The position numbers and the translations under genes were made by a program. Below the pieces are notes generated by a model. It was not told the origin of the DNA, did not search any database, and saw only the letters and a list, made by a program, of their open reading frames with translations. 64,000 bases of DNA, taken from positions 59,759-123,758 of the IMG/VR virus record IMGVR_UViG_3300025310_000004; one strand, written 5' to 3'. This document shows positions 20,941 to 30,980 of this stretch, one piece after another (the stretch's first letter is position 1; each line of letters opens with the position of its first letter). The stretch comes from a virus. Lineage: Duplodnaviria > Heunggongvirae > Uroviricota > Caudoviricetes.

Positions 20941-21006
20941 TCCTCCCCTGGTCAGTGTCGCAGTGGTGTGCTACTATCACGCCACGCCAAGAGAGAGGAG
21001 ACACCC

Positions 21007-21864
21007 ATGGCACGACTCATCATCACCCGAGGTCTACCGGCATCGGGCAAGTCCACCTGGGCGATCGAGCAGATCGCCAAGAACCCCGGTCGCACCATCC
21101 GTGTCAACCGGGATGACATCCGCGCCTCGATCCATGGCGGCGGCAAGTGGTCCAAGACCAAGGAGAAGGCGACCGTTGCAGTTCGCGACGCCATGATCCG
21201 TGCTGGTCTGGCGCAGGGCCTCACGGTCATCTGCGACGACACGAACCTGCCCCAGAAGGTCGTGGACGACCTGACCTTCCTGGCGCACGAGGCCAAGGCC
21301 GATGTGCTGGTGCAGGACTTCACCCACGTCTCGCCCGAGGAGTGCATCAAGCGTGACCTCGCCCGTGAGCGCACGGTGGGGGCCGAGGTCATCATGCGGT
21401 GGTACAACGACTTTCTCAAGCCGGACATGACCGTCACCGTGGATGAGTCCAAGCCCAAGTGCGTCATCGTGGACGTGGACGGCACCCTCGCCCTCCACGT
21501 CGCTCGCGGCCCCTTCGAGTACGACAAGTGCTCGACGGACGCTCCCAATCCCCGTGTGGTCGAGTTGATCAAGATGCTCCGCTCGACCTACGAGGTGGTG
21601 GTGTGCTCTGGCCGTGAGGGCACCGATCAGTGCCGCGCTGACACCATCGAGTGGCTGCAGCGTCACGGCATCACCTTCTCGGGGTTCTTCATGCGCCCCG
21701 AGGGTGACATGCGGAAGGACGCCATCATCAAGCGCGAGATTCTGGAACGGGACATCCTCCCGCGCTGGAACCCTGTGCTGGTGGTGGACGACCGCGATCA
21801 GGTCGTCCGCATGTGGCGCGATGCCGGGCTGACCTGCTGGCAGGTCGCCGACGGCAACTTCTGA
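21007..21864 (+). CDS. pnkp: polynucleotide kinase-phosphatase (T4 Pnkp-like)
   Basis: N-terminal P-loop GLPASGKST and C-terminal HAD motif VIVDVDGTLA. Confidence 0.8.
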   Translation: MARLIITRGLPASGKSTWAIEQIAKNPGRTIRVNRDDIRASIHGGGKWSKTKEKATVAVRDAMIRAGLAQGLTVICDDTNLPQKVVDDLTFLAHEAKADVLVQDFTHVSPEECIKRDLARERTVGAEVIMRWYNDFLKPDMTVTVDESKPKCVIVDVDGTLALHVARGPFEYDKCSTDAPNPRVVELIKMLRSTYEVVVCSGREGTDQCRADTIEWLQRHGITFSGFFMRPEGDMRKDAIIKREILERDILPRWNPVLVVDDRDQVVRMWRDAGLTCWQVADGNF

Positions 21865-21870
21865 GAGCCG

Positions 21871-21912
21871 CCCCCTGTTGTAGTCCTGTCGATCAGGTGC
21901 TACAACAGGGGG
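21871..21912 (+). promoter_or_regulatory. perfect 13-bp hairpin ending 2 nt before the WhiB-like ATG
   Basis: CCCCCTGTTGTAG-(16 nt)-CTACAACAGGGGG. The 3' arm contains the AGGGGG SD. Confidence 0.4.
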
Positions 21913-21914
21913 CC

Positions 21915-22145
21915 ATGCTCGAACCTCCCGCATGGCACGCCTTCGCCAACTGCCGGGGTTGTGACCCCGACCTGTTCTTCCCCCAACGAGGTGAATCGAC
22001 CAGGGAGGCCAAGGCGGTGTGTGCTGGGTGCGTGGTGCGCGAGGACTGCCTTGCCGACAGCGTTAGTGAGAAGTTCGGCATCTGGGGTGGCCTGAGCGAG
22101 CGTGAGCGACGCCGCATCCGCAGGCGGATCGCCCTCGCTGGATAA
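21915..22145 (+). CDS. WhiB-like (Wbl) protein
   Basis: CRGC, CAGCVVREDC and FGIWGG. Confidence 0.7.
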   Translation: MLEPPAWHAFANCRGCDPDLFFPQRGESTREAKAVCAGCVVREDCLADSVSEKFGIWGGLSERERRRIRRRIALAG

Positions 22146-22157
22146 CCCCTTGCGCTG

Positions 22158-22180
22158 GTGTCGCACCCGTGTGCTAGGGT
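22158..22180 (+). promoter_or_regulatory. conserved promoter motif GTGTCGCACCCGTGTGCTAGGGT (copy 4)
   Basis: TGcTAGGGT extended -10, with the ATG at 22188 seven nt downstream (leaderless 28-codon ORF). Confidence 0.5.
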
Positions 22181-22307
22181 CGTAGACATGTTCAGGTCCA
22201 GCGACTTCCGCGAACGAGATCAGCGCCGCTCCCGGCGTTGGCGTCGCGATGCGCGACCTGAGGAGCGCAACTAACCCGTACCCCTCATATCCGGGTGCGG
22301 GAATCAT

Positions 22308-22378
22308 CCCCCCGGAGACATAGGGTGCGTCACCTGCCTCTCAAGCAGGAGAATCGGGTTCGAGTCCCGGCGGGGGGA
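22308..22378 (+). tRNA. tRNA-Glu(CTC)
   Basis: Acceptor CCCCCCG/CGGGGGG. Anticodon loop CTCTCAA. Confidence 0.6.
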
Positions 22379-22381
22379 CTA

Positions 22382-22464
22382 GGGAGTGTGGTGGTCGCGT
22401 GAGCACCATCCCGAGTCAGGAACAACACCAGTGGATCGGTGCCTGACGAGTTGGAGCACTCCCT
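22382..22464 (+). ncRNA. atypical tRNA-like element (acceptor and D-stem pair, no canonical T-loop or anticodon loop)
   Basis: GGGAGTG...CACTCCC 7-bp acceptor, with internal helices GTCAGG/CCTGAC and CACC/GGTG. Confidence 0.3.
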
Positions 22465-22473
22465 CACAACCTA

Positions 22474-22549
22474 GGTCCGTTGGTGTAGTGGTCTTGCACG
22501 TTGGCTTGTCACGCCAAAGGAATTGGGGGTTCGATTCCCCTACGGACCG
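22474..22549 (+). tRNA. tRNA-Asp(GTC)
   Basis: Acceptor GGTCCGT/ACGGACC. Anticodon loop TTGTCAC. Confidence 0.7.
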
Positions 22550-22599
22550 CGTAACTCCCTGGTGAGCCTCTCACCGAAGCGCCCAGGGAGAGAGAACAA

Positions 22600-22671
22600 G
22601 CCCCAGGAGACGTATGGCGAGTCGCCGGACTTTCAATCCGGTTGTAGCGGGTTCGATTCCCGTCTGGGGTA
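22600..22671 (+). tRNA. tRNA-Glu(TTC)
   Basis: Anticodon stem CCGGA/TCCGG. Anticodon loop CTTTCAA. Confidence 0.6.
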
Positions 22672-22684
22672 CGCAACAACACAT

Positions 22685-22754
22685 AGGCCAGCCACAGGGT
22701 GGACGGGAGTCTCCAAAACTCCTAGGCAGGGTTCGAGTCCCTGTTGGCCTGCCA
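22685..22754 (+). tRNA. tRNA-Trp(CCA) with shortened D-arm, CCA encoded
   Basis: Anticodon stem GGAGT/ACTCC. Anticodon loop CTCCAAA. Only 14 nt between acceptor and anticodon stem. Confidence 0.5.
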
Positions 22755-22755
22755 A

Positions 22756-22832
22756 GCGCCCGTGGTCTAATGGATTAGGACACTTGACTACGAATCAAGA
22801 GGCTGCAGGTTCGAGTCCTGCCGGGCGCGCCA
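22756..22832 (+). tRNA. tRNA-Arg(ACG), CCA encoded
   Basis: Acceptor GCGCCCG/CGGGCGC. Anticodon loop CTACGAA. Confidence 0.75.
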
Positions 22833-22833
22833 A

Positions 22834-22906
22834 CCCGATGTAACTCAGCGGAGAGAGTGCCGTCTTGCGAAGGCGGAAGTCGCAGGTTCGACTCCTGCCA
22901 TCGGGG
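22834..22906 (+). tRNA. tRNA-Arg(GCG)
   Basis: Acceptor CCCGATG/CATCGGG. Anticodon loop TTGCGAA. Confidence 0.6.
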
Positions 22907-22922
22907 CTTGACAACAGAACTT

Positions 22923-22997
22923 CCCCCGTTGGTGAAACGGAGATCACGGCGTCGTCCGAAGGCGCAGTTCCAGGTTCGATTCCTGGGTGGGGGGCCA
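22923..22997 (+). tRNA. tRNA-Arg(CCG), CCA encoded
   Basis: D-stem GTGA/TCAC. Anticodon loop GTCCGAA. Confidence 0.55.
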
Positions 22998-23075
22998 CCG
23001 GGTAGGGGTGACGGCTTGGAAGCACGCCGGTCTGGGGGACCGGAGGACGCGGGTTCAAATCCCGCCTACCCGACC
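22998..23075 (+). tRNA. tRNA-Pro(GGG), CCA encoded
   Basis: Acceptor CGGGTAG/CTACCCG. Anticodon loop CTGGGGG. Confidence 0.6.
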
Positions 23076-23079
23076 AGAA

Positions 23080-23445
23080 CTACTTGCGACGAAGGTACTT
23101 CCAGACTCGTGAGTCCGAATCAAACAGGTGCTTGAGGAACCATGCGAAGAAGGTCACGACTCCACCAGCGATGATCGCCGTCCAGACCGGAGACTCTCCG
23201 GCGACGTACTGGATGTGCTCGGTGAGAGTGTCGCCGCCGCTGTCGTTGATGAGCGCTGGGACCTCGATGGCGAAGAAGCCGACGACGGCGCTCACCAGCC
23301 AGATCACCCAGGCGATCGTCCAGCCCTTGCGAGGCTGATCCCCCTCGGGAGTGGGCGGCTTCTTGGCAAGGAAGGCCATGCGCCCCACGAAGGCCGCTCC
23401 ACCCAGAAGGGCTACCGTGAGCAGGGTGGTGGCGACGACATCCAT
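23080..23445 (-). CDS. small membrane protein (3-4 TM)
   Basis: Hydrophobic ORF. The long N-terminus would overlap tRNA-Arg, so the shorter MDVV start is preferred. Confidence 0.45.
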   Translation of the reverse strand: MDVVATTLLTVALLGGAAFVGRMAFLAKKPPTPEGDQPRKGWTIAWVIWLVSAVVGFFAIEVPALINDSGGDTLTEHIQYVAGESPVWTAIIAGGVVTFFAWFLKHLFDSDSRVWKYLRRK

Positions 23446-23462
23446 AGCGCAAGCGTACTCTC

Positions 23463-23534
23463 GCCCTCGTGGTGGAAGGGATACCACGGCTCTCTCCTAA
23501 AGAGCAGGTCTGGGTTCGAGTCCCAGCGAGGGCG
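23463..23534 (+). tRNA. tRNA-Arg(CCT)
   Basis: Acceptor GCCCTCG/CGAGGGC. Anticodon loop CTCCTAA. Confidence 0.7.
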
Positions 23535-23540
23535 CTACAA

Positions 23541-23612
23541 GCCTCCGTCGTCCAACGGATAGGACACCCGCCCTCTAAGCGGTGGATGCGGGTTCGACTC
23601 CTGCCGGGGGCG
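23541..23612 (+). tRNA. tRNA-Arg(TCT)-like (C33, weak anticodon stem)
   Basis: Anticodon loop CCTCTAA. The alternative register CTCTAAG would give a CTA anticodon. Confidence 0.4.
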
Positions 23613-23614
23613 CT

Positions 23615-23635
23615 GTCGCACTCAAGTAGTACGAT
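23615..23635 (+). promoter_or_regulatory. promoter motif variant TGTCGCACTC...TAGTACGAT (copy 5)
   Basis: GTG start at 23643, seven nt after TACGAT. Confidence 0.4.
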
Positions 23636-23642
23636 CTGTTGC

Positions 23643-24407
23643 GTGATCGGTGAAGTTGAGTTCGAGGTACCAGACCTTGCCGAGCCAATCAGGGCTTGGA
23701 GATGTTGGCTGCTGGATGGCGACTTCGCTACGCCCATCTTGAAGTCGCCTCAGTCTGGTGTCATCTGGCCGCCAGTGAACGGGTGGCCGAGCGCAGTGAT
23801 TCGTGATCCTGAGCGCAACTACATCACCGCGACGTGTCGGAACGTGACGGGACCTTGTGGGTCATCGCCGTCGGCATCGCGAGATGGTCACCGTGGGGTC
23901 GGTTGTGGCATCTACGCCTACAAGACCGTCGAGGACCTGGCGTGGGATTGGCCTCTTGCTGGCTTGAGCCGCTTCTCCCCCATGAACCTGCTTCCCCCAC
24001 CGTGGGCGCAAGTGGTGTGGGGCCGTGTGCTGTTGTGGGGTCGCGTGTTCGAGCACGATCGTGGCTATCGGGCTGAGTTCGCTCGCATCGACTCGTTGGT
24101 GAGCGTGCCAAACCTTGGCTTCCTGTCGGACGACAAGTTGCTTGATGTCGCCAAGTTCTACGGGGTTCCCTACGAGGTGCTCACCACCGTGTCCAAGGCC
24201 GACCTCGAAGCGGCGGCGTTGGCTCGCGAGAACGAGATGGTGGAGCGGATCAATGCCGCCTACACCAGCCTCGGGGTAGCCCTGGACAACTTGGTTGATG
24301 TGATGACGCGTGGCATGACCCAGATGGTCAAGAGCGTGGCGGATGCCATCGAGCGCTTCAATGCCACCTACGGCAAGGGCGACGACAAGGAGGATGACGA
24401 TGGGTGA
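23643..24407 (+). CDS. hypothetical protein
   Basis: The ORF-track N-terminus overlaps tRNAs, so I trimmed it to the leaderless GTG after the promoter motif. Confidence 0.5.
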   Translation: MIGEVEFEVPDLAEPIRAWRCWLLDGDFATPILKSPQSGVIWPPVNGWPSAVIRDPERNYITATCRNVTGPCGSSPSASRDGHRGVGCGIYAYKTVEDLAWDWPLAGLSRFSPMNLLPPPWAQVVWGRVLLWGRVFEHDRGYRAEFARIDSLVSVPNLGFLSDDKLLDVAKFYGVPYEVLTTVSKADLEAAALARENEMVERINAAYTSLGVALDNLVDVMTRGMTQMVKSVADAIERFNATYGKGDDKEDDDG

Positions 24408-24534
24408 GATCGGAGAGCCGGTGCGTGAGGAGCCATGGCAGGTCCCCGCACCGCCAACGCATGAGCCGGTGAAGGAGCCTTCCCCTGAGCCGGTCGAGCA
24501 GCCCGAGCCTGAGCGCCCCCTGATTCCCGCCTGA
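24394..24534 (+). CDS. small Pro/Glu-rich hypothetical protein
   Basis: Internal ATG overlaps the upstream gene end. Confidence 0.3.
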   Translation: MTMGEIGEPVREEPWQVPAPPTHEPVKEPSPEPVEQPEPERPLIPA

Positions 24535-24538
24535 TCGA

Positions 24539-24560
24539 TGTCGCACCCGGCTGCTATGTT
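24539..24560 (+). promoter_or_regulatory. conserved promoter motif TGTCGCACCC-N6-TGcTATGTT (copy 6)
   Basis: ATG at 24567, six nt after the -10. Confidence 0.5.
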
Positions 24561-24566
24561 GCAGCC

Positions 24567-25256
24567 ATGAACGTGATCCTGCAAGGGGTTGTCGGCTCAA
24601 CCGCCTACGGCCTCGCTACCCCAACTTCCGACATCGACCGCCTCGGCGTGTTCCAAGCCCGCACCTCTGAGTTGCTGGGCCTGCATCCGCCCAAGGAGTC
24701 GCGCGTCTCGACCAACCCGGACGTGACCCACCACGAGTTGGGCAAGTTCGTGAAGTTGTGCCTGGCGAACAACCCCACGGTGATGGAGTTGCTCTGGCTT
24801 GACGAGTACGAGGTGATGACCCCCCTGGGTGAGCGCCTCATCGAGCATCGTCAGTCCTTCATGTCGCAGCGCATCCGCAAGACCTACGGTGGCTATGCCC
24901 GCCAGCAGTTCGAGCGGCTGATGCGTCGTGAGGAGGCCGAGCCGGGCGCTGGCTTCGCTGCCGACCTCAAGAAGCGCACCGAGAAGCACGCCCGCCACTG
25001 CTACCGCCTCATCCTGCAGGGCACCCATGCGCTTCGCACGGGTGAGTTGCGGGTGCGGCTGACTTCTGAGGAAGTTCAGATGTGCCGTGAGGCTGGGCTG
25101 ATGGCAGCCAATGACGTGGTGGAGTTCGGCAAGTCCGTCGAGATCGCCATGGCCGAGTTCGATGCCACCCCCACGGACCTCCCTGAGCATCCCGACGATG
25201 CGGACGCGAACTCGATGCTCGTGGTGGCTCGCACGCTCGATCTCACCGCTCCCTGA
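24567..25256 (+). CDS. Pol-beta-superfamily nucleotidyltransferase
   Basis: VVGSTAYGLATPTSDIDRLGVF GS..D.D motif. Confidence 0.65.
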   Translation: MNVILQGVVGSTAYGLATPTSDIDRLGVFQARTSELLGLHPPKESRVSTNPDVTHHELGKFVKLCLANNPTVMELLWLDEYEVMTPLGERLIEHRQSFMSQRIRKTYGGYARQQFERLMRREEAEPGAGFAADLKKRTEKHARHCYRLILQGTHALRTGELRVRLTSEEVQMCREAGLMAANDVVEFGKSVEIAMAEFDATPTDLPEHPDDADANSMLVVARTLDLTAP

Positions 25257-25273
25257 GAAACTCCTTGCGCGGG

Positions 25274-25295
25274 TGTCGCACCCAGGTGCTAAGGT
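25274..25295 (+). promoter_or_regulatory. conserved promoter motif TGTCGCACCC-N6-TGcTAAGGT (copy 7)
   Basis: Upstream of a 27-codon ORF (ATG ~25340, AGGAGG SD) and the tRNA cluster. Confidence 0.45.
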
Positions 25296-25439
25296 GATCG
25301 AAGAACGCATCGAGCGTTGAGCCACAGGAGGTGACCCAAATGCGAGCGTGTACGAGCATCACAACTGAGATGACCGGCGCTGGCATGGGGATTCCCGTAG
25401 GCTCCGGTCGATTTACCGGCTGACGCTGGTAGCCCAGGT

Positions 25440-25515
25440 CGCGGCTGGGTGAAACGGTTTCCACGCCTGGCTCATAACCAGGAGACATCCGGTTCGACTC
25501 CGGTAGCCGCCACCA
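25440..25515 (+). tRNA. tRNA-Met(CAT), initiator-like (C1·C72 mismatch, A73), CCA encoded
   Basis: Acceptor CGCGGCT/AGCCGCC. Anticodon stem CCTGG/CCAGG. Anticodon loop CTCATAA. Confidence 0.55.
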
Positions 25516-25648
25516 ACCTGCCAGACCGATGATGGGACGCCCACCGAATGACCCGGAGGCGAAACCCGGAGGTCTGACTCCCGACGAGATGGTGCAGGCC
25601 ACTTGTCGGACTCGGGTGAGGGGGCTTCGGCCCCCCACCCGACACCAT

Positions 25649-25722
25649 GGGGCAGCATGTACCAAGGCGGGCGACAGTGCTTTGCAAGCACCGTGTGGTG
25701 GGTTCGATTCCCACCTGCTCCA
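25649..25722 (+). tRNA. tRNA-Ala(TGC) with G3·U70
   Basis: Acceptor GGGGCAG/CTGCTCC. Anticodon loop TTTGCAA. T-arm GTGGG-TTCGATT-CCCAC. Confidence 0.6.
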
Positions 25723-25781
25723 CTGCAGCAGGGTCACCTGCGAGCAAGCGATCATTGACAACTGAATAGGTCTACACAGAT

Positions 25782-25849
25782 GGGGCACGCGCAGGGCGCA
25801 CGCGTCGCTGGCAGCGAAGCATCGCGGGGTTCGAGTCCCCGGTGCTCCA
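25782..25849 (+). pseudogene. tRNA-Ala-like pseudo-tRNA lacking an anticodon loop
   Basis: Acceptor GGGGCAC/GTGCTCC with G3·U70 and a canonical T-arm. Only 36 nt separate them: helix TCGCT/AGCGA with a 3-nt loop. Confidence 0.4.
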
Positions 25850-26029
25850 CTGTGGGGAAGGCCGACGGACAAGGCTTAGGCCCGTGAGAGCGTCAGTACG
25901 AACGTGGGAGGACTTCGGTCCGCTTCACCACGCGGAGGCGTTCAAGCCGGGGTGGGTAGCGAGTGGTCGAGTTCTTCCCCCACCAAGGTCGTGGTACGGC
26001 TCCGGGCAACCGGGCCGCCACGGCCTCGT

Positions 26030-26104
26030 GCGGCATAGGTGTTACGGGTTGCATACCTGCCTTCCAAGCAGAGGGACGGGGTTCGAGTCCCCGATGCCGC
26101 TCCA
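26030..26104 (+). tRNA. tRNA-Gly(TCC), CCA encoded
   Basis: Acceptor GCGGCAT/ATGCCGC. Anticodon loop CTTCCAA. Confidence 0.65.
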
Positions 26105-26217
26105 ACCCCATGGATCGGAGTCGCTACCCGCTCCATGCGTCGCCCTACTGCTGACGGGGGCGTGAAGGTGATACCCCACGAGAGTGTGCACGCTCGACCG
26201 GGGCACGTCGGCTCCAA

Positions 26218-26292
26218 GCGTTCAAGGTGTTCCTGGCTGCACGCCACCTTGCCATGGTGGAGGAGGGGGTTCGAGTCCCCCTGGACGCTCCA
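26218..26292 (+). tRNA. tRNA-Gly(GCC), CCA encoded
   Basis: Anticodon stem CCACC/GGTGG. Anticodon loop TTGCCAT. Confidence 0.7.
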
Positions 26293-26293
26293 A

Positions 26294-26369
26294 GGTTCTC
26301 AGGTGTCCGGTTGGATCGGCACGACGGTCTGAAAAGCCGTAGGGCTGGGTTCGAGTCCCAGGGGAACCA
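26294..26369 (+). tRNA. tRNA-Phe(GAA)
   Basis: Anticodon stem ACGGT/GCCGT. Anticodon loop CTGAAAA. Confidence 0.7.
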
Positions 26370-26374
26370 CACAA

Positions 26375-26414
26375 GGTGTTTCCACTGTTTCCTCTGGCGG
26401 AAACAGGAAACACC
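26375..26414 (+). other. long imperfect hairpin in tRNA spacer (GGTGTTTCC..GGAAACACC)
   Basis: About 16 bp of pairing around the loop tctggc. Confidence 0.4.
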
Positions 26415-26421
26415 GAGGACA

Positions 26422-26499
26422 TGCACGGGTAGCGCCAAGCGGCAAAGGCACCTCCTTCACACGGAGGGGATCGTGGGTTCGAGTCCCACCCCGTGTACC
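26422..26499 (+). tRNA. tRNA-Val(CAC), CCA encoded
   Basis: Anticodon stem CCTCC/GGAGG. Anticodon loop TTCACAC. Confidence 0.7.
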
Positions 26500-26500
26500 A

Positions 26501-26577
26501 AGCGCCGGTGCCCGAGCGGCCTAAGGGGGCGGCCTGCAAAGCCGTACTACGGGGGTTCAAATCCCCCCCGGCGCTCC
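26501..26577 (+). tRNA. tRNA-Cys(GCA), CCA encoded
   Basis: Acceptor GCGCCGG/CCGGCGC. Anticodon loop CTGCAAA. Confidence 0.65.
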
Positions 26578-26682
26578 ATCGCAAGAACTCCCACCCGAGC
26601 ACTCGGGGGTGGATCGAGTAACAAGGACCCATCGTCCCCCGCTTCGGCCGGATCGGTGCTAGGAACCCACTGAGTGCGTCAC

Positions 26683-26762
26683 CGGGGCGTATACCCTCCG
26701 TCTGATAAGCGGTAGAAAGGTTAGTTGGTGACACGGAGGTTCAAATCCTCCCGCCCCGACCA
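26683..26762 (+). tRNA. atypical tRNA (possible Ile-GAT loop CTGATAA; D-region too short, long extra region), CCA encoded
   Basis: Acceptor CGGGGCG/CGCCCCG and a canonical T-arm. The internal region does not fold canonically. Confidence 0.3.
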
Positions 26763-26763
26763 T

Positions 26764-26925
26764 GGTGAGAGACAGGAAGGTACGAGGGTTCGATTCCCTC
26801 ACGCTCCACTCGTGGGGCGTCCGGTGGACTCCGGTGAAGTCGGTTCGATTCCGACGCCCCGTAGGGGTGATGGTCACGAATAGGGTCGCTCCCGCCGAGG
26901 TGGTTCGACTCCACCACTCTCACCA
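26764..26925 (+). ncRNA. three tandem tRNA-like T-arm/acceptor minihelices enclosed by an 8-bp terminal helix, ending CCA
   Basis: T-arms at ~26784, 26851 and 26905, spaced 54-67 nt apart. 5' GGTGAGAG pairs with 3' CTCTCACC. Confidence 0.4.
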
Positions 26926-26931
26926 GATCAT

Positions 26932-27008
26932 GCACGGGTGGCCAAGTCTGGTAAGGCCCCTCCATGACACGGAGGAAACCGCGGGTTCAAATCCCGCCTC
27001 GTGCACCA
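26932..27008 (+). tRNA. tRNA-Val(GAC), CCA encoded
   Basis: Anticodon loop ATGACAC. T-arm GCGGG-TTCAAAT-CCCGC. Confidence 0.65.
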
Positions 27009-27009
27009 C

Positions 27010-27083
27010 TGCGCCGAAGTCGATTGGCGAGACAGCGGCCTCATAAGCCGTGGTAGAGGGTTCGATTCCCTCCGGCGCGACCA
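27010..27083 (+). tRNA. tRNA-Met/Ile2(CAT), CCA encoded
   Basis: Anticodon stem GCGGC/GCCGT. Anticodon loop CTCATAA. Confidence 0.6.
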
Positions 27084-27084
27084 C

Positions 27085-27159
27085 GCACCCAAGGTCTAGA
27101 CGGCGAGACGGCGGCATGGTAAGCCGCAGAGCGGGGTTCAAGTCCCCGTGGGTGCTCCA
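27085..27159 (+). tRNA. tRNA-Thr(GGT), CCA encoded
   Basis: Acceptor GCACCCA/TGGGTGC. Anticodon loop ATGGTAA. Confidence 0.7.
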
Positions 27160-27160
27160 C

Positions 27161-27235
27161 GCACTGGAAGCATGAATGGTGATGCGGCTGTCTCGTAAAC
27201 AGCAGAACCGGGTTCGATTCCCGGCCGGTGCTCCA
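27161..27235 (+). tRNA. tRNA-Thr(CGT), CCA encoded
   Basis: D-stem GCAT/ATGC. Anticodon loop CTCGTAA. Confidence 0.75.
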
Positions 27236-27236
27236 T

Positions 27237-27308
27237 GCCGTTGGCCCTGGTGGGCGCGCCGCCGTTGTACCGCGGTTACCTCGGGTTCGATCCCTGGCGA
27301 CGGCTCCA
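27237..27308 (+). tRNA. atypical tRNA: reduced D-arm and apparent 9-nt anticodon loop (CGTTGTACC), CCA encoded
   Basis: Acceptor GCCGTTG/CGACGGC. T-loop TTCGATC. Confidence 0.35.
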
Positions 27309-27360
27309 AGCACTAGACATCGTTAGACCTGTTCAGTTGTCTGCCCTCAAGGAGACAGAT

Positions 27361-27995
27361 CATGCGAGTTGAGATTCGCCCCGGTGAAGGGGGTGAGGAC
27401 GCCCAGCGCTTCGCCAAGGAGTGCCTTTGACGCGTTCTGCAAGGCGGCCCGCCGACGTGGGCTTGAGCCAGCAGTCAGCGAGTCCGCTCGCACCATGATC
27501 TTGGAGATCGCCGACATCTCCTTCCTTGAGCCCTTCGTCGGCACCCACCGCGTGCAGCGCATCCCCAAGGGGGAGCAGCGCCGTCACACCTCGACGGCCA
27601 CGGTTGCGATCGTCGGCCAGGTAGACAATGACGACTTCATCCCCGATGAGGAAATCGAGGAGCGGTTCGATCGCGGTGGCGGCAAGGGTGGCCAGCACCA
27701 GAACACCACCGACTCGGCGGTGACCCTCACCCACACCCCCACCGGGATCACGGTCCACATCGAGGGACGCAAGCAGTGGGGCAACCGCCAGGAAGCACGT
27801 CGGGTGCTATCCGAACGGGTAGCAGCCCATCGCCGAGCAGAGGCGTTGCGGATGTGCAACGACCAGCGGCGCGCCCAGATCAACCCGGAGCGCTCCGCCA
27901 AGTCGTTCACCCACAACACTCAGCGCAACGAGGTGGTGGACCACGACTCGGGTCGGTCGTGGCGGCTCACCGAGTTCCATAAGGGCAAGTTCTGA
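27361..27995 (+). CDS. prfH-like: class-I release-factor homologue lacking domain 1 (RF-H/PrfH-like); full length requires +1 frameshift at CUU UGA C
   Basis: Frame A gives MRVEIRPGEGGEDAQRFAKECL then TGA. The +1 frame continues DAFCKAARRRG...HRVQRIP...GGQHQNTTDSAVTLTHTPTGI. AAGGAG sits 3 nt upstream of CTT. Confidence 0.65.
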
Positions 27996-28017
27996 TGTCA
28001 CAGCCATCCGCTATGGT

Positions 28018-28827
28018 GTGCCGATGGCCAGGATGCTCGTACTCGGTGACACGCACGGCGACGTGAAGTTCTTGGAGCGCGCCTGCCGGATGGCCGTGAA
28101 GTCCGACTGCGACCGCATCGTCCAGGTCGGCGATTGGGGCTTCCTGTGGCCAGGAGCGAAGAACGATCGCCTCAAGGCGATCACCAACGTGTTGGCGCAG
28201 TTCGACCTCCACATGTTCTTCCTCGACGGCAACCATGAGTGGTATGGCCGCTTGGAGGAGATGGGGGCGACCCCCGATGCTCCCCACATGGTTGCGCTGT
28301 CGGATCGGGTCGCCTACTTGCCTCGTGGCTTCACTTGGGCTTGGGGCGGCGTGACCTTCATGTCGCTTGGCGGTGCCTTCTCCATCGACCAGGACCAGCG
28401 GACCAAGTTCATCGACTATTGGCCCCAGGAGACGATCCGTTACGCGGACGCTGACCGTGCCATTGCCGCTGGGCATGTGGACGTGATGTTCACCCACGAC
28501 GTTCCCGAGGGCGTTGTCAAGTTGGAGGCGATGCTGCATCGCGCCAGTGATCACTACCGGAGGTCCTACGGGGCCAAGTGGAACTACAAGTTGGACCCCG
28601 GCAGCCGGGCCAACCGCAAGACGTTGCGCGCCGTCGTTGACGAGGTGCAGCCCTTCTTGCTGATCCACGGCCACTACCACTGGCGCTACGACGACACCTT
28701 GGTGGGCGAGGACTACACCACCGAGGTGCGCGGCCTTGACTGCAACGGCTCGGGCGAGAGGGCCTGGGGAGTCGTGGATACGGCCGATGTCTTGAGATGG
28801 AGACTTGTCGTTGACGACGACGAATGA
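28018..28827 (+). CDS. calcineurin-like metallophosphoesterase
   Basis: GDTHGD, GDWG, DGNHE and GHYH motifs. Confidence 0.75.
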   Translation: MPMARMLVLGDTHGDVKFLERACRMAVKSDCDRIVQVGDWGFLWPGAKNDRLKAITNVLAQFDLHMFFLDGNHEWYGRLEEMGATPDAPHMVALSDRVAYLPRGFTWAWGGVTFMSLGGAFSIDQDQRTKFIDYWPQETIRYADADRAIAAGHVDVMFTHDVPEGVVKLEAMLHRASDHYRRSYGAKWNYKLDPGSRANRKTLRAVVDEVQPFLLIHGHYHWRYDDTLVGEDYTTEVRGLDCNGSGERAWGVVDTADVLRWRLVVDDDE

Positions 28828-28987
28828 GGACATCCAGCAGCACCCGCTCCACCGGGTGGTGGTGGGGGCGTTGAAGGACACCATCAACATGCACGGCCCC
28901 ATCACCCCCGAGTGGATCGGGTCTGCCGCCAAGCGGATCACGGCTGCCGTGGTGGCCGAGCAGAAGAAGTCTGCGGAAACCTCTTGA
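28805..28987 (+). CDS. small hypothetical protein
   Basis: 60-aa ORF with a TTG start overlapping the upstream gene. Confidence 0.3.
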   Translation: MSLTTTNEDIQQHPLHRVVVGALKDTINMHGPITPEWIGSAAKRITAAVVAEQKKSAETS

Positions 28988-28991
28988 TCGA

Positions 28992-29013
28992 GTGTCGCAC
29001 CCGTGTGCTAGGG
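28992..29013 (+). promoter_or_regulatory. conserved promoter motif TGTCGCACCCGTGTGCTAGGGT (copy 8)
   Basis: Identical to copy 4. ATG at 29021 of a 33-codon ORF, then the Leu tRNA cluster. Confidence 0.5.
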
Positions 29014-29158
29014 TCGTAGACATGTACCGATTGCTCCCCCTCCTACGGCCACTCAAGGCCAAGCCTGGGCATCAGCGCCCGCGCCATGCTGCGCGACCGC
29101 TGAATCCCCAGCAACAGGGGTAGAGCACCTTCTCTCCCCCTGTGGCCTGAGAAGGTCT

Positions 29159-29242
29159 TGCGGGGGTGGCGTAACTGGCAGCCGCGCCGGGTTTAGGTCC
29201 CGGTGGCCGAGAGGTCGTGAGGGTTCGAGTCCCTCCTCCCGC
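29159..29242 (+). tRNA. tRNA-Leu(TAG)
   Basis: Anticodon stem CCGGG/CCCGG. Anticodon loop TTTAGGT. 15-nt variable arm. Confidence 0.65.
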
Positions 29243-29246
29243 ACCG

Positions 29247-29333
29247 AGTGCCCGTGGCGGAACTGGTAGACGCGTTGTCCTCAGAAGGCAATGTCCGCAA
29301 GGGCGTGAGGGTTCGACTCCCTCCGGGCACACC
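29247..29333 (+). tRNA. tRNA-Leu(CAG), CCA encoded
   Basis: Acceptor GTGCCCG/CGGGCAC. Anticodon loop CTCAGAA. Confidence 0.7.
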
Positions 29334-29334
29334 A

Positions 29335-29420
29335 AGTCAGCATGGTGGAATGGTAGACACGCCGTCTTGAGGGGGCGGTGGCCGCAAGGTCGTGAGGGTT
29401 CGACTCCCTCTGCTGACACC
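29335..29420 (+). tRNA. tRNA-Leu(GAG), CCA encoded
   Basis: Acceptor GTCAGCA/TGCTGAC. Anticodon loop TTGAGGG. Confidence 0.7.
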
Positions 29421-29445
29421 AAACGCAAGAAACGCAACAAGATCA

Positions 29446-29527
29446 AGCCCGAGTGGCGGAACTGGCAGACGCGCTCGTCTCAAGAACGAGTGACCTAGGT
29501 CGTGTGGGTTCGACTCCCACCTCGGGC
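29446..29527 (+). tRNA. tRNA-Leu(CAA)
   Basis: Anticodon stem CTCGT/ACGAG. Anticodon loop CTCAAGA. Confidence 0.7.
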
Positions 29528-29560
29528 ACGCAAGGCTCTTTGACAACAGAAGATCACCGA

Positions 29561-29585
29561 TACAACGGGACGGGGTGACGGCTTG
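29561..29585 (+). repeat. duplicated 5' fragment of tRNA-Pro(CGG) (CAACGGGACGGGGTGACGGCTTGG)
   Basis: 24/25 identity with 30021-30045 at the start of the intact tRNA-Pro downstream of the HNH gene. Confidence 0.6.
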
Positions 29586-29600
29586 GATTAGACGGCAACG

Positions 29601-29606
29601 CTATAA
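29601..29606 (+). promoter_or_regulatory. perfect TATAAT -10 box 8 nt upstream of HNH ATG
   Basis: Seen directly. The surrounding sequence has lower GC. Confidence 0.4.
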
Positions 29607-29614
29607 TCTAATCC

Positions 29615-30037
29615 ATGACGATCACCCAGAAGTGCAAGCGCTGCGGAAAGCGGCGTGAACACGGACTCCGACGCAATGGCAGTGCTCAGGCGTACTGCCG
29701 TCAGTGTCAGAGGGAATACAGCAAGAGTCACTACGAAACCAACAAGGGTTCGTACAACGGCAGGAGGTTGAAGCACCAACGGCAGCGACGCCAAGACGGA
29801 TACAAGATCACGAACTCGGCCAAGGATCGCCCTTGCGTCGATTGCGGGGTCAAGTACCCGACCTACGTCATGCAGTTCGATCATCGGGACCCGACGACCA
29901 AGAACTTCACGATTGCCACCCATGTTCGCAATGGTGGCTCCTTGAAGGCGCTGATCGCCGAGATCGAGAAGTGTGACGTGGTTTGTGCGAATTGTCATGC
30001 CGAAAGGACGCATCAACAACGCAACGGGACGGGGTGA
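29615..30037 (+). CDS. HNH homing endonuclease
   Basis: MQFDHRDP and CANCHAERTH HNH motif. The gene has lower GC than its flanks. Confidence 0.8.
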   Translation: MTITQKCKRCGKRREHGLRRNGSAQAYCRQCQREYSKSHYETNKGSYNGRRLKHQRQRRQDGYKITNSAKDRPCVDCGVKYPTYVMQFDHRDPTTKNFTIATHVRNGGSLKALIAEIEKCDVVCANCHAERTHQQRNGTG

Positions 30038-30102
30038 CGGTTTGGTTGCACGCCGCGTTCGGGACGCGGAGGTCGCGGGTTCAAATCCCGCCGTCCCGAC
30101 CA
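30025..30102 (+). tRNA. tRNA-Pro(CGG), CCA encoded
   Basis: Acceptor CGGGACG/CGTCCCG. Anticodon loop TTCGGGA. The 5' end overlaps the HNH stop. Confidence 0.65.
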
Positions 30103-30103
30103 T

Positions 30104-30176
30104 CGGAAGGTGGTGACAAGCGCACAGCGGCCGTTGGGGCCGCAGGACCGGGGGTAGCGTCCCGGCTTTCCGACCA
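30104..30176 (+). pseudogene. cloverleaf tRNA-like with non-canonical loops (T-loop GGTAGCGT, anticodon loop CGTTGGG), CCA encoded
   Basis: Acceptor CGGAAGG/CTTTCCG. All four helices are present. Confidence 0.35.
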
Positions 30177-30177
30177 A

Positions 30178-30249
30178 CGGGTAGGTGCCGGATGGCAAGG
30201 CACTCGGTTTGGGGCCGAGACTAAGGAGGTTCGATTCCTCTCTACCCGA
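30178..30249 (+). tRNA. tRNA-Pro(TGG)
   Basis: Anticodon stem CTCGG/CCGAG. Anticodon loop TTTGGGG. Confidence 0.65.
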
Positions 30250-30254
30250 CTTGA

Positions 30255-30323
30255 TCGATGGTGGCCGCAATTGGTAGCGGTAGCCCGACGGGGTTTGTGC
30301 GGGTTCGAGTCCCGTCCATCGAT
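30255..30323 (+). pseudogene. tRNA-like with canonical acceptor/T-arm but collapsed anticodon arm
   Basis: Acceptor TCGATGG/CCATCGA and T-arm GCGGG-TTCGAGT-CCCGT. Internal CCCGACGGG. Confidence 0.3.
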
Positions 30324-30330
30324 CAACCAT

Positions 30331-30406
30331 TCCGGGGAAGGTTGATGGCATCCTGCCCGCACTCTGAATGCGGACCACGTTGGTTCGATTCCAACCCCCG
30401 GAGCCA
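30331..30406 (+). tRNA. tRNA-Gln(CTG), CCA encoded
   Basis: Anticodon stem CCGCA/TGCGG. Anticodon loop CTCTGAA. Confidence 0.7.
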
Positions 30407-30407
30407 T

Positions 30408-30483
30408 GGTGACCGGAGCCGGATGGAGAGGCGCTTGGTTGTGACCCAAGCAGCAGGGGGTTCGATTCCCCTCGGTCACCCCA
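30408..30483 (+). tRNA. tRNA-His(GTG) with encoded G-1 and C73, CCA encoded
   Basis: G-1 + GTGACCG/CGGTCAC. Anticodon loop TTGTGAC. Confidence 0.7.
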
Positions 30484-30487
30484 TCGA

Positions 30488-30562
30488 TCGGGAGTGGTGT
30501 AACGGCAGCACGCGAGGCTTTGAACCTCGTAGGTGAGGGTTCGAGTCCTTCCTCCCGAGCCA
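30488..30562 (+). tRNA. tRNA-Gln(TTG), CCA encoded
   Basis: Acceptor TCGGGAG/CTCCCGA. Anticodon loop CTTTGAA. Confidence 0.7.
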
Positions 30563-30591
30563 ACGTCACAGCGACATGATACTATAGGAGA

Positions 30592-30744
30592 ATGCTAGGT
30601 AACCGAAAGAACCGAGGTCGCCACGGCGATAGGTACTGCCCCTACGGGTGCTGCCGCAGCCTGGTGACCGGCAAGAAGTCCAAGACCCGCCGCATCTTGC
30701 GGACCCGCGACAAGCGGGCCTGGGTCAAGGACCAGCGCAACTGA
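30592..30744 (+). CDS. small basic Cys-containing protein (50 aa)
   Basis: AGGAG SD. MLGNRKNRGRHGDRYCPYGCCRS... Below the ORF-track cutoff. Confidence 0.3.
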   Translation: MLGNRKNRGRHGDRYCPYGCCRSLVTGKKSKTRRILRTRDKRAWVKDQRN

Positions 30745-30748
30745 TCGT

Positions 30749-30824: not shown

Positions 30825-30825
30825 A

Positions 30826-30900: not shown

Positions 30901-30901
30901 T

Positions 30902-30979: not shown

Positions 30980-30980
30980 A

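Follow-up and report, generated by a model that had tools for sequence, protein, structure and literature searches.

The seven units that a first-pass annotation flagged as degenerate or non-canonical tRNA-like genes fairly probably fall into three classes within a single polycistronic tRNA array of the phage, which lies amid RNA-repair genes. All seven are present on the plus strand of the window, the whole 64,000-nt stretch of DNA analyzed here. The units are thus real, as the annotation had it, but they are not the single family it proposed, since related phages split them three ways. Class A comprises tRNAs with a miniature D-arm, class B comprises non-decoding tRNA mimics, and class C comprises units specific to this phage.

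The tRNA Array and Its Detection

The array belongs to an uncultivated high-GC phage and runs along one strand. Two of its tRNA genes, which were not on the first-pass list, are given with it.

17932..31159, plus strand: tRNA array, 37 tRNAs called by ARAGORN and the non-standard units, interrupted by RNA-repair genes
18339..18426, plus strand: tRNA-Ser(CGA), class II, with one T-stem mismatch
26294..26369, plus strand: tRNA-Phe(GAA), near-canonical

Array neighbors are an Rnl1-like ligase, PNKP, the RlaP nucleotidyltransferase, an RF-1-domain protein and Ro60. The spacers between class A or class B units and the adjoining tRNAs are 1 nt long.

ARAGORN at default settings calls none of the seven flagged units. 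Covariance-model scoring, which had been proposed as a check, brings none of them to the gathering score of the Rfam tRNA model (RF00005, 29 bits). The tRNA-Ser is also missed by default ARAGORN. The tRNA-Phe is missed by default tools and scores 28.9 bits against the gathering score of 29, while its orthologs in the related contigs L002 and L044 are called tRNA-Phe. For Trp, Phe and Ile, the window has no gene other than units overlooked by default tools. Relaxed ARAGORN calls were rejected. At the 80% threshold, 30104 is called "Gln" and 30255 "Tyr" among many false calls on both strands, and the acceptor stems are poor in the Ile and "Trp" calls made with -ps90 at 26670-26863.

We scanned the window for TTCRA-type T-arms leading into a perfect 7-bp acceptor stem. 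This gave 44 units at 17,932-31,157, and along the remaining ~50 kb neither strand has a TTCRA loop with perfect stems. The flagged units are therefore more than chance matches; five of the seven (22685, 25782, 26683, 27237 and 30255) are among the 44. Over 22805-29021, the window matches an independent Logan assembly (L049) with 100% identity, indicating that the odd region is not an artefact of one assembly.

Related Arrays

Syntenic arrays were observed in eight related contigs, with RlaP protein identity of 55-89%. All of these relatives are uncultivated metagenomic contigs, and with the window they make nine genomes. An RlaP profile found 24 metagenome loci, 12 of which were scanned for tRNAs; among those the array was present only in L003. 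INPHARED phages gave no match to 25400-27400 by megablast or to the Trp unit by blastn. There is no tRNA array near the RlaP gene in Streptomyces phage JustBecause or Gordonia phage Bantam (RlaP homolog). Pattern scans of IMG/VR with the Thr unit returned only two contigs that were already known, and those with the 30255 unit and the three-T-arm RNA described below returned nothing.

Short-D tRNAs, with a D-region of 12-15 nt, are found in all nine genomes. Their types are Trp, Ala-GGC, Thr-UGU, Thr-CGT, Arg-UCU, Arg-CCU and Arg-ACG. Across the nine genomes, one gene, either canonical or miniature, fills most anticodon slots, and thus the miniature forms are not spare copies.

Class A: tRNAs with a Miniature D-Arm

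Three flagged units share this build.

22685..22754, plus strand: tRNA-Trp(CCA), 66 nt plus G73 and CCA; A1:U72; D hairpin CCAC-AGG-GUGG
25782..25849, plus strand: tRNA-Ala(GGC), 67 nt plus A73; G3·U70; D hairpin GCGC-AGG-GCGC, no 8-9 linker; anticodon loop CUGGCAG; canonical T-arm
27237..27308, plus strand: tRNA-Thr(UGU), 68 nt plus U73 and CCA; D hairpin GCCC-UGGU-GGGC; C31·C39 mismatch under a 7-nt loop

In units of this class, 66-68 nt in total, the D hairpin directly abuts the 7-bp acceptor stem and has 4 bp and a loop of 3-4 nt. There is neither the two-nucleotide 8-9 linker nor the D-arm with a 7-11-nt loop of canonical tRNAs. A 2-nt linker and N26, an anticodon arm of 5+7+5 nt and a normal T-arm follow. 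The D-region is 14 nt in 22685, as had been annotated for this tRNA-Trp, 14 nt in 25782 and 15 nt in 27237, compared with ~17-21 nt in canonical tRNAs. A 7-bp acceptor stem, a 5-bp T-stem and a 7-nt TTCRAnY loop are present in all three, and also in 26683 and 30255. All three have a 5-bp anticodon stem, with at most one non-pair each, and a 7-nt loop with U33 and purine 37.

The unit at 25782 had been described as an Ala-type G3·U70 acceptor with no anticodon loop. The G3·U70 acceptor and the canonical T-arm are there, but so is the loop, C-U-GGC-A-G. It seemed missing because RNAfold pairs C32:G38 and U33:A37, which collapses the loop to 3 nt. The annotation itself had allowed that its manual folding might be wrong and the units standard tRNAs; for 25782 the former is true and, given the miniature D-arm, the latter is not. 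The loop CUGGCAG is found in four of the five aligned Ala genomes, and also in L044, L002 and L042. In L040 the loop is AUGGCAU, and therefore 32:38 covaries from C:G to A:U. In tRNA-Ala(GGC), pairing of the Watson-Crick type at 32-38 is a peculiarity already known (PMC4238358).

Orthologs of the Ala unit are present in L044, L045, L001, L003 and L040, those of the Thr unit in L001, L002, L003 and L045, and those of the Trp unit in L002 (7079-7148) and L046 (2957-3026). Several class A orthologs are called as tRNAs by default ARAGORN, with the anticodon at position 29-31. The two Trp orthologs are called tRNA-Trp in this way, and the window copy is called with -mt. The Ala orthologs are called tRNA-Ala(ggc), and 25782 itself is called at -ps90.

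The Ala, Trp and Thr units were aligned per ortholog group. Paired cells and pairs changed on both sides amount to 96% and six for tRNA-Ala(GGC), 95% and three (two of them in the D hairpin) for Thr-UGU, and 96% and nine for the Thr-CGT type, in alignments that, like all those used here, contain only 2-5 distinct sequences; shared ancestry alone can exceed the shuffle control. When the partners were slid by 1-3 columns, 32-58% were paired. In the Trp unit, the D hairpin CCAC/GUGG is replaced with GCGC/GCGC in L046. The covariation supports a cloverleaf with a miniature D-arm. Each class A unit is the only gene for its anticodon in each genome. These units are probably decoding tRNAs of unusual build, conserved across relatives.

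As adaptors, they would be co-transcribed with neighbors 1 nt away and excised by RNase P and 3' processing, with CCA either encoded or added. Host synthetases would charge them through the retained identity elements, which are G3·U70 for Ala; A1:U72, G73 and CCA for Trp; and G1:C72, C2:G71 and the anticodon for Thr. Ribosomal use would follow. A D hairpin that abuts the acceptor stem without the 8-9 linker may strain the L-shape. To our knowledge, acceptance of such tRNAs by canonical bacterial enzymes and EF-Tu is not known. The conserved non-Watson-Crick positions 28·42 (Ala) and 31·39 (Thr) could equally well mean reduced function.

For 27237, an apparent 9-nt anticodon loop had been noted, and frameshift suppression was among the roles suggested for the flagged set. 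The arm is 17 nt long, and a 7-nt loop GUUGUAC (U33, UGU, A37) above C31·C39 is the more economical reading. A +1 frameshift-suppressor function of 27237 and related units, with the anticodon loop expanded to 9 nt, is highly improbable. No Thr-UGU ortholog has a pair at 31·39, four of five Thr-CGU orthologs also lack one, and sufJ, a suppressor derived from tRNA-Thr, has an irregular top of the anticodon loop like 27237 (PMC4238358). However, sufJ, through an inserted nucleotide, has a loop of 8 nt and an arm of 18 nt (PMC4238358), while 27237, with its 31·39 mismatch, and all its orthologs keep the canonical arm length of 17 nt. U33 and A37 are in the canonical register, the ortholog of the same type in L040 has G31:C39, and the unit is the sole Thr-UGU gene in the five genomes with the miniature form.

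Another reading is that the miniature-D-arm tRNAs mainly bait toxins that target tRNAs, host anticodon nucleases among them, and do not serve translation. The authentic anticodon loops would suit this, as would the other genes of the phage, which has the classical repair pair against anticodon nucleases (PNKP and the Rnl1-like ligase) and further tRNA-repair genes. A counter-defence role of phage tRNAs has been proposed (PMC10264068). Bait and adaptor are not separated by the sequences. Bait would need neither the synthetase identity elements nor the CCA ends that are retained, and each unit fills a unique anticodon slot, with no other phage gene for Trp. We consider a bait function in place of translation improbable. 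The decoy and decaying-copy explanations offered in the first-pass annotation do not suit 25782, 22685 and 27237, which are orthologous across phages, have intact 7-nt loops and compensatory stems, and are sole genes for their anticodons.

Class B: tRNA Mimics without an Anticodon Loop

Two flagged units and one RNA that was absent from the first-pass list are grouped here.

30104..30176, plus strand: tRNA-like RNA from tRNA-Pro; C1:G72 acceptor and ACCA; 3-bp D stem; 6-bp stem with a 4-5-nt loop replacing the anticodon loop
30255..30323, plus strand: tRNA-like RNA; normal acceptor, D-arm and T-arm; tetraloop hairpin for the anticodon arm; no CCA encoded
26763..26926, plus strand: three-T-arm RNA (class B-like), 164 nt; 9-bp closing stem UGGUGAGAG/CUCUCACCA; three T-arm hairpins

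The 30104 unit had been described as a full cloverleaf with an unusual T-loop. This T-loop, GGTAGCGT, is indeed non-canonical, and the "anticodon" loop is also only 5 nt long. The T-like arm is CCRGGG-xAGCG-UCCYGG. The unit is present in five genomes (the window, L001, L003, L040 and L042) and missing from the arrays of L002 and L046. In the alignment of the five, 99% of cells are paired and four pairs are changed on both sides. The non-canonical T-loop and the D-loop are largely conserved, with xAGCG in four of five, while the loop at the anticodon position varies in length (4-5 nt) and sequence. The best matches to a covariance model of this unit (R1), after its five members, are tRNA-Pro genes. 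By its sequence, 30104 is a derivative of tRNA-Pro.

A scan of IMG/VR for the odd T-like hairpin of 30104 gave mostly chance or coding matches. Two unrelated contig groups that matched it (L027 and L030) have no Rfam match there and reach only 30-33 bits with R1. A scan of bacterial genomes with the 30104 core gave at least 120 matches, in GC-rich genomes, and 0 of the 100 tested fit R1.

The collapsed anticodon arm noted at 30255 is a 5-bp stem with the tetraloop GACG. Its homolog, with three compensatory pairs, lies at 9311-9382 of L040, so that the unit is found in two genomes only; both copies have tetraloops, which differ in sequence. The best alignment is to tRNA-Leu minus the anticodon arm, and the unit looks like a tRNA-Leu that lacks this arm. 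The three-T-arm RNA has a homolog at 5108-5253 of L040, with two compensatory pairs in the closing stem. A tmRNA or a nested tRNA at 26684-26811 (GGGGCGU/ACGCUCC, via G3·U70) was rejected. The Rfam tmRNA model gives 25.3 bits there, no better than the 23.8-32.9 bits of ordinary array tRNAs and below the gathering score of 47, and the 3' piece is part of the three-T-arm RNA, which is conserved. ARAGORN found no tmRNA in the window.

With a loop of 4-5 nt at the anticodon-loop position, class B cannot decode. As there is no anticodon loop, these RNAs could be uncleavable competitors, as opposed to cleavable substrates of anticodon nucleases. Most likely, class B RNAs, including the 164-nt RNA, would undergo tRNA-like processing and then act as stable, uncleavable ligands of a factor that binds the tRNA body, a role suggested by their anatomy. 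The decoy explanation is thus possible for 30104 and 30255, which are conserved in structure and non-decoding, although not for class A.

Alternatively, class B may have no function in trans, and its tRNA shape may be punctuation or a spacer for processing by RNase P and a 3' nuclease. The units lie 1 nt from the flanking tRNAs, their helices are conserved and their loops are not, and tRNA-like elements such as mascRNA are processing signals elsewhere. However, pairs of tRNA-Pro genes in L002 and L046 are 1 nt and 29 nt apart with no unit between them, so these arrays do without punctuation. The non-canonical T-loop and the D-loop of 30104, as described above, are also largely conserved. Pure punctuation is therefore a possible but rather unlikely explanation.

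Small structured RNAs between tRNA genes are known from phage T4, whose stable RNAs C and D (species 1 and 2) are co-matured with the tRNAs and have no known function. Class B is likened to them by description only; it differs in being derived from tRNA-Pro or a Leu-like tRNA and, except for the 164-nt RNA, in being tRNA-sized.

Class C: Units without Counterparts, and Insertions

The two remaining flagged units are listed with the remnants of an insertion in the same array.

22382..22466, plus strand: T-arm-less unit, 85 nt, three-way junction; inserted between tRNA-Glu and tRNA-Asp
26683..26762, plus strand: aberrant tRNA-Ile(GAU); perfect acceptor, T-arm and CCA; intact CUGAUAA loop; no D-arm; ~21-nt variable region
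29566..29586, plus strand: 5' fragment of tRNA-Pro(CGG), 21 nt, upstream of the inserted HNH-like ORF; read from sequence
29615-30037: inserted HNH-like ORF; CxxC...DH...N...CxxCH motifs read by eye
30025-30102, plus strand: complete tRNA-Pro(CGG), downstream of the HNH-like ORF insertion

The absence of a T-loop in 22382 was correctly noted. The unit folds as a three-way junction, not as a cloverleaf, and has neither the T-arm nor the anticodon arm of a canonical tRNA. Its similarity to tRNA-Tyr is weak (z = 2.4). There is no homolog in any related locus, and the Glu-Asp spacer in L001, L002, L040 and L042 is 9-13 nt.

The lack of a proper D-arm in 26683 was likewise seen again. A connector of 7-8 nt takes the place of the D-arm, with a D-region of 7 nt, and the variable region holds a D-loop-like sequence. 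The anticodon stem and 7-nt loop are present. A canonical tRNA-Ile is found at this position in L001, L002, L003, L040, L042, L045 and L046. No homolog of the aberrant form is found among the related loci, of which the closest, L044 (89%), ends before the Ile locus.

Class C is probably rearrangement debris, as judged from the lack of counterparts in relatives. Both units would be phage-specific by-products of heavy rearrangement of the array. Rearrangement is also seen around the HNH-like ORF, for which a Pfam search gave no match at E <= 0.01. Similar ORF insertions are found in tRNA-Gly of L044 and tRNA-Val of L045, and insertions of the homing-endonuclease type in tRNA genes are seen in three of the genomes. 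Partial prokaryotic tRNA genes are mis-scored by annotation tools (PMC9897764), like the 29566 fragment and possibly 22382; most flagged units differ from them in being full-length and structurally conserved.

A broader version of decay would make all flagged units neutrally drifting tRNA pseudogenes without function in a fast-evolving array. Their failure with both the Rfam gathering score and default ARAGORN would be expected of pseudogenes. So would a turbulent array, with a tRNA fragment by the HNH-like ORF and several phage-specific units, and so would the two units without relatives. Yet related phages, with proteins only 57-79% identical, keep five of the seven units, and every helix of these shows compensatory substitutions. 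The class A anticodon loops are invariant or canonical, and the miniature forms are the sole genes for their anticodons. It is quite improbable that all seven are pseudogenes. The comparison of orthologous loci, another check that had been proposed, shows the defects to be conserved for these five and not for 22382 and 26683, the only two that "decaying duplicates" would fit.

Comparison with Known tRNAs and tRNA-Like RNAs

tRNA-Pyl and mammalian mitochondrial tRNA-Ser(UCN) have a short acceptor-D connection and a tiny D-loop, and they still decode. Class A resembles these compact-core tRNAs, and loosely the D-arm-reduced tRNAs of metazoan mitochondria, in the shortened acceptor-D link and the very small D-loop. 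In contrast to them, class A has no 8-9 linker whatever, covers several amino-acid families, mostly has a canonical T-loop (TTCRAnY), and usually keeps GG in the D-loop. Unlike the mitochondrial cases, the phage tRNAs must work with bacterial synthetases, EF-Tu and ribosomes. A review of compact and D-arm-reduced mitochondrial tRNAs does not mention phages (PMC7609411). In 2024, all known bacterial tRNAs were stated to be canonical, and E. coli had to be evolved to accept a D-armless tRNA (PMC11551756). No report of D-arm-truncated or miniature-D-arm phage tRNAs was found in the open-access literature searched.

The best Rfam match for 25782 is the mascRNA/menRNA family (RF01684), which has a tRNA-like fold with a reduced anticodon arm. 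The score at 25782-25848 is 30.4 bits, below the gathering score of 42.5. Since 25782 has a full anticodon loop, the match reflects general tRNA likeness only. The family is also from vertebrates, unlike this phage unit. The tRNA-like domain of tmRNA, with G3·U70 and no anticodon, corresponds to the first-pass picture of 25782, but not to the unit itself, given this loop.

YrlA-type Y RNAs are non-decoding tRNA mimics that lie next to Ro60 in some actinophages (Chen et al. 2014, PMC4201824). The window contains Ro60 and about five tandem Y-RNA-like repeats (33153-33750). These repeats have the YrlA-type fold, in which a terminal stem encloses a T-arm, an acceptor-like hairpin and a D-arm module, although their motif GCGAAG/GCGUAG is only close to GNCGAAN0-1G. 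The flagged units do not have this fold. Their acceptor ends are free, they lack a long Ro-binding stem, and they lie 3-11 kb upstream of the repeats, within the tRNA array.

Implications

A more far-reaching scenario, which we regard as unlikely though worth stating, is that an uncultivated actinophage-like clade evolved its own miniature tRNAs of 65-68 nt, with a D-arm of 4 bp and a 3-4-nt loop and without the 8-9 linker, and that these work with bacterial synthetases, EF-Tu and ribosomes. They would be kept because host enzymes or toxins that recognize tRNAs by the D-arm or elbow would miss them, and the mimics of tRNA-Pro and tRNA-Leu would be uncleavable decoys against tRNA-targeting immunity.

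Non-canonical tRNA shapes are usually seen as peculiar to animal mitochondria and to the Sec and Pyl tRNAs. If class A is charged and used, these units would be natural miniature-D-arm adaptors in bacterial translation. This would bear on tRNA recognition by synthetases, EF-Tu, RNase P and modification enzymes, and on tRNA engineering. Default tRNA finders under-report the tRNA sets of phages; in this phage, they overlook five to six decoders, among them the sole genes for Trp, Phe and Ile. The conserved mimics that lack an anticodon, found amid genes for tRNA repair, Ro60 and Y RNAs, may form a new layer in the interaction of phages with tRNA-targeting defence.

The tRNA array and its relatives

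The G+C content of the window is 62-64%. The array and the protein-coding genes among and near it are listed below.

17.9-31.2 kb, one strand: tRNA array (37 tRNAs by default ARAGORN, 30 by Rfam at gathering score)
19846-20940: Rnl1-like RNA ligase, among the array tRNA genes
20968-21864: PNKP kinase-phosphatase, among the array tRNA genes
24567-25256: RlaP nucleotidyltransferase, among the array tRNA genes
27369-27995: protein with an RF-1 (GGQ) domain, among the array tRNA genes
28018-28827: metallophosphoesterase, among the array tRNA genes
33605-35404: Ro60/TROVE protein (predicted)

With these tools and settings, none of the seven flagged tRNA-like units was called, and neither was any tRNA-Trp, tRNA-Phe or tRNA-Ile in the array. 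The scan criterion was a TTCRA-type T-arm with, immediately 3' of it, one strand of a perfect 7-bp helix whose other strand lies 45-100 nt upstream. This gave 44 units within the array, and no TTCRA-type loop with perfect stems on either strand in the rest of the window. Five of the seven flagged units are among the 44, and folding bears out most of the anatomy described in the first-pass annotation. The units are real, and the observation is more than chance. A second, independent assembly (Logan, L049) is identical to the window over 22805-29021.

Searches anchored on RlaP and on the phosphoesterase recovered eight related metagenomic contigs (L001, L002, L003, L040, L042, L044, L045, and L046). 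These carry syntenic arrays, and their RlaP proteins are 55-89% identical to that of the window. Every comparative statement here is based on these eight contigs. The units had been regarded as one family of degenerate or non-canonical tRNA-like genes. They are genuine, but the comparison separates them into three different things: Class A (25782, 22685, and 27237), Class B (30104 and 30255, with an RNA at 26763-26926), and Class C (26683 and 22382). The defects are kept in related phages in Classes A and B, but not in Class C.

The RlaP protein of the window is on record from a 171-kb metagenomic contig. No DNA-level match to 25400-27400 or to the Trp unit was found among INPHARED cultured phages. 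Protein matches are to Streptomyces, Saccharomonospora, and Gordonia phages (32-48% identity), and they suggest an actinobacterial host. Genes for tRNA/RNA repair and translation are dense around the array (11543-15232, 18971-21864, 24567-25256, and 27369-28827). This toolkit also has a 2H-phosphoesterase domain, within a 1229-aa protein, and a LAGLIDADG-like ORF; relatives additionally encode RtcB, PTH2, and ClpP (all L046) and a Thg1-like protein (L042).

Miniature-D-arm tRNAs

25782: tRNA-Ala(GGC), directly after tRNA-Ala(UGC); ARAGORN calls tRNA-Ala(GGC) at the same position in relatives
22685: tRNA-Trp(CCA), with A1:U72, G73, and encoded CCA
27237: tRNA-Thr(UGU), 1 nt after tRNA-Thr(CGU)

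These three units are very probably functional tRNAs with an unusual, conserved miniature-D-arm design. The tRNA-Ala(GGC) reads GGGGCAC / GCGC-AGG-GCGC / ACG / CGUCG-CUGGCAG-CGAAG / CAUCG / T-arm / GUGCUCC-A. It had been described as having no anticodon loop, because RNAfold extends the stem through 32:38 and 33:37. This is incorrect: the loop CUGGCAG is present, and it is identical in the window and six relatives (L044, L045, L001, L003, L002, and L042). It is AUGGCAU in L040, and the 32:38 pair therefore covaries from C:G to A:U. The part of PMC4238358 that cites Ledoux et al. 2009 gives a Watson-Crick-type 32-38 pair as a known rarity of tRNA-Ala(GGC). Across five distinct orthologs, 96% of cells are paired, six pairs are changed on both sides, and G3·U70 never varies; as a control, sliding the 3' partners by 1-3 columns leaves only 32-51% of cells paired.

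The tRNA-Trp unit shares its 66-nt build with orthologs in L002 and L046, which default ARAGORN calls tRNA-Trp with the anticodon at position 29. The D hairpin changes from CCAC/GUGG to GCGC/GCGC in L046. The build of tRNA-Thr(UGU) is kept in L001, L002, L003, and L045, with two compensatory pairs in the D hairpin (GCCC/GGGC, GCUC/GAGC, GCCG/CGGC) and one in the acceptor stem. Its apparent 9-nt anticodon loop is in fact a canonical loop of 7 nt above a C31·C39 mismatch; at 17 nt, the arm differs from the 18-nt arm of sufJ, a frameshift-suppressor tRNA-Thr (PMC4238358). In five relatives, tRNA-Thr(CGU) has a parallel miniature form with nine double-change pairs, and one member has G31:C39.

By a structure-aware parse, tRNAs with a 12-15-nt D-region occur in all nine genomes and include Trp, Ala-GGC, Thr-UGU, Thr-CGU, Arg-UCU, Arg-CCU, and Arg-ACG. 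The ARAGORN-called tRNA-Ala(UGC) at 25649-25723 is also atypical: its D stem has 3 bp and carries a 13-nt loop, and A27·C43 is mismatched. It matches no tRNA model at either Rfam threshold (best, tRNA-Sec at 25.6 bits). Non-canonical features are therefore not confined to the flagged units.

Non-decoding tRNA mimics

30104: between tRNA-Pro(CGG) and tRNA-Pro(UGG), 1 nt from each
30255: between tRNA-Pro(UGG) and tRNA-Gln; homolog at the same position in L040
26763-26926: 164-nt RNA with a 9-bp closing stem and three T-arm hairpins

Counterparts of 30104 are present in L001, L003, L040, and L042 and absent from the L002 and L046 arrays. In all five copies the acceptor is of Pro type (C1:G72) with ACCA after it, the D stem has 3 bp, and a 6-bp stem carries a variable loop of 4 or 5 nt (GUUGG, AUCGG, AUGG, GUGGG, AUGG), a variation with which no fixed anticodon can be presented. 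The T-loop had been noted as non-canonical, and all five copies indeed carry CCRGGG-(G/A)YAGCG-UCCYGG (loop UGACG in L040) in place of TTCRAnY. In their alignment, 99% of cells are paired and four pairs (three in the acceptor stem) are changed on both sides. The next-best scores on R1, a covariance model built on these copies, belong to tRNA-Pro genes (26-44 bits), so 30104 derives from tRNA-Pro.

The hairpin CCRGGG-GYAGCG-UCCYGG, the same as that of 30104, is also observed in two unrelated sets of IMG/VR contigs (L027 7072-7156, also L028 and L036; L030 3345-3406, also L032 and L033), where a closing stem's 3' strand adjoins it. On full-length R1, these contigs score 30-33 bits. Coincidence in GC-rich DNA could explain the hairpin, or it could belong to a more widespread tRNA-like motif.

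Both copies of 30255 have a normal acceptor, D-arm, and T-arm, and the collapsed anticodon arm seen earlier is a 5-bp stem capped by the tetraloop GACG or UCGG. The acceptor, tetraloop hairpin, and T-stem each contain one compensatory pair; these three pairs are suggestive of structural conservation, although not conclusive from two sequences. Both copies align best with tRNA-Leu genes lacking the 17-nt anticodon arm; the kept hairpin may thus be the former variable arm. Short T-arm pieces near 26683 are parts of the single 164-nt RNA, whose closing stem has two compensatory pairs relative to L040.

As judged from sequence, 30104 and 30255 are conserved non-decoding mimics. Tentatively, Class B RNAs could be stable ligands shaped like tRNAs, in competition for some factor that recognises the tRNA body; the leading alternative is a role purely in cis, in transcript processing. 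Stable RNAs C and D belong to the T4 tRNA cluster. These RNAs and YrlA Y RNAs (PMC4201824) are the closest analogues of Class B. Putative YrlA-type Y RNAs are present in the window too, but separate from the flagged units.

Other possible structured RNAs and an upstream motif

About five tandem ~150-nt repeats (33153-33750) lie just upstream of, and extend into, the predicted Ro60/TROVE ORF start. The terminal stem into which each repeat folds is long and bulged (5' GUUGCGAAG, 3' CAAGUUCUCG), and the branched domain inside it includes a T-arm. In the first repeat, the T-arm is followed by an acceptor-like hairpin and then a D-like arm, as in YrlA. The repeats resemble the tandem Y RNA genes reported from mycobacteriophages that encode Ro60 (PMC4201824), and Ro60 itself probably starts downstream of 33605.

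Four of the spacers that separate tRNA genes (25516-25648, 25853-26029, 26105-26217, and 26579-26682), 104-177 nt long and not tRNAs themselves, are kept in related phages with 70-100% identity. They match no Rfam family and may be further structured RNAs. The Cys-Ile spacer shows pseudoknot-like complementarity (CCCACCC...GGGGGUGG), and its loop GAGCACUC matches GAGUGC downstream.

A short motif, TTGACAA(C/T)(N)GA(A/G)AT, lies just upstream of several tRNA/RNA units in the window (22908, 25753, 29540, and 33139) and relatives (L002 7063; upstream of tRNA-Pro genes in L001 and L003). It is loosely defined, since a strict pattern search gives a single match in the window, and it could act as a processing signal or as a compact phage promoter.

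Probable phage-specific remnants

In the unit at 26683, the acceptor and T-arm are perfect, CCA is present, and the CUGAUAA loop is canonical. As first described, it lacks a proper D-arm; the D-loop-like sequence GGUUAGUUGG lies in its long variable region. A canonical tRNA-Ile takes its place in seven relatives. The 22382 unit is an 85-nt insertion in a spacer that is 9-13 nt in four relatives. It folds as a three-way junction (z = -2.1) and has no homolog in any locus compared. Its likeness to tRNA-Tyr is weak (z = 2.4), and its acceptor is the same as that of the L002 tRNA-Tyr. Both units are probably wreckage specific to this phage.

Instability of the arrays is plain to see. At 29566-30102, a 21-nt 5' fragment of tRNA-Pro(CGG) is separated from a full copy of that gene by an HNH-like ORF (29615-30037; HNH motifs recognised by eye, no Pfam match). 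Similar ORFs split tRNA-Gly(UCC) in L044 (~1900-2380) and tRNA-Val(CAC) in L045 (~3500-4090), each followed by a replacement tRNA copy. This suggests that homing endonucleases target tRNA genes and leave fragments behind, a plausible origin of the Class C debris.

Comparison with known tRNAs and decoding capacity

Rfam has no family for the odd units. The best match of 25782 is mascRNA (30.4 bits, below the gathering score of 42.5). A tmRNA identity was rejected, as the Rfam tmRNA scores of the odd units are no better than those of ordinary tRNAs. The closest functional analogues of Class A are compact-core tRNAs: tRNA-Pyl, mitochondrial tRNA-Ser(UCN), and D-arm-reduced mitochondrial tRNAs. 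Phages are absent from a review of non-canonical tRNAs (PMC7609411), and according to a 2024 paper (PMC11551756) every known bacterial tRNA is canonical. No report of D-arm-truncated phage tRNAs was found in the searched open-access literature.

Two near-canonical genes were also missed by the default tools.

26294: tRNA-Phe(GAA)
18339: tRNA-Ser(CGA)

With these, the window has 42-43 decoders covering all 20 amino acids, and units missed by the default tools are its sole sources of Trp, Phe, and Ile. Each affected anticodon has one gene per slot, and the form of that gene, canonical or miniature, may differ between phages. The window, for example, has a canonical Thr-CGU gene where L002, L003, L040, L042, and L045 have a miniature one; its Thr-UGU gene is miniature, and those of L040, L042, and L046 are canonical. 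Such replacement argues that the miniature tRNAs behave as interchangeable adaptors, not spare copies. Since the Class A units lie 1 nt from adjoining tRNAs, co-transcription with their neighbours would be hard to avoid. They are probably charged and used in translation.
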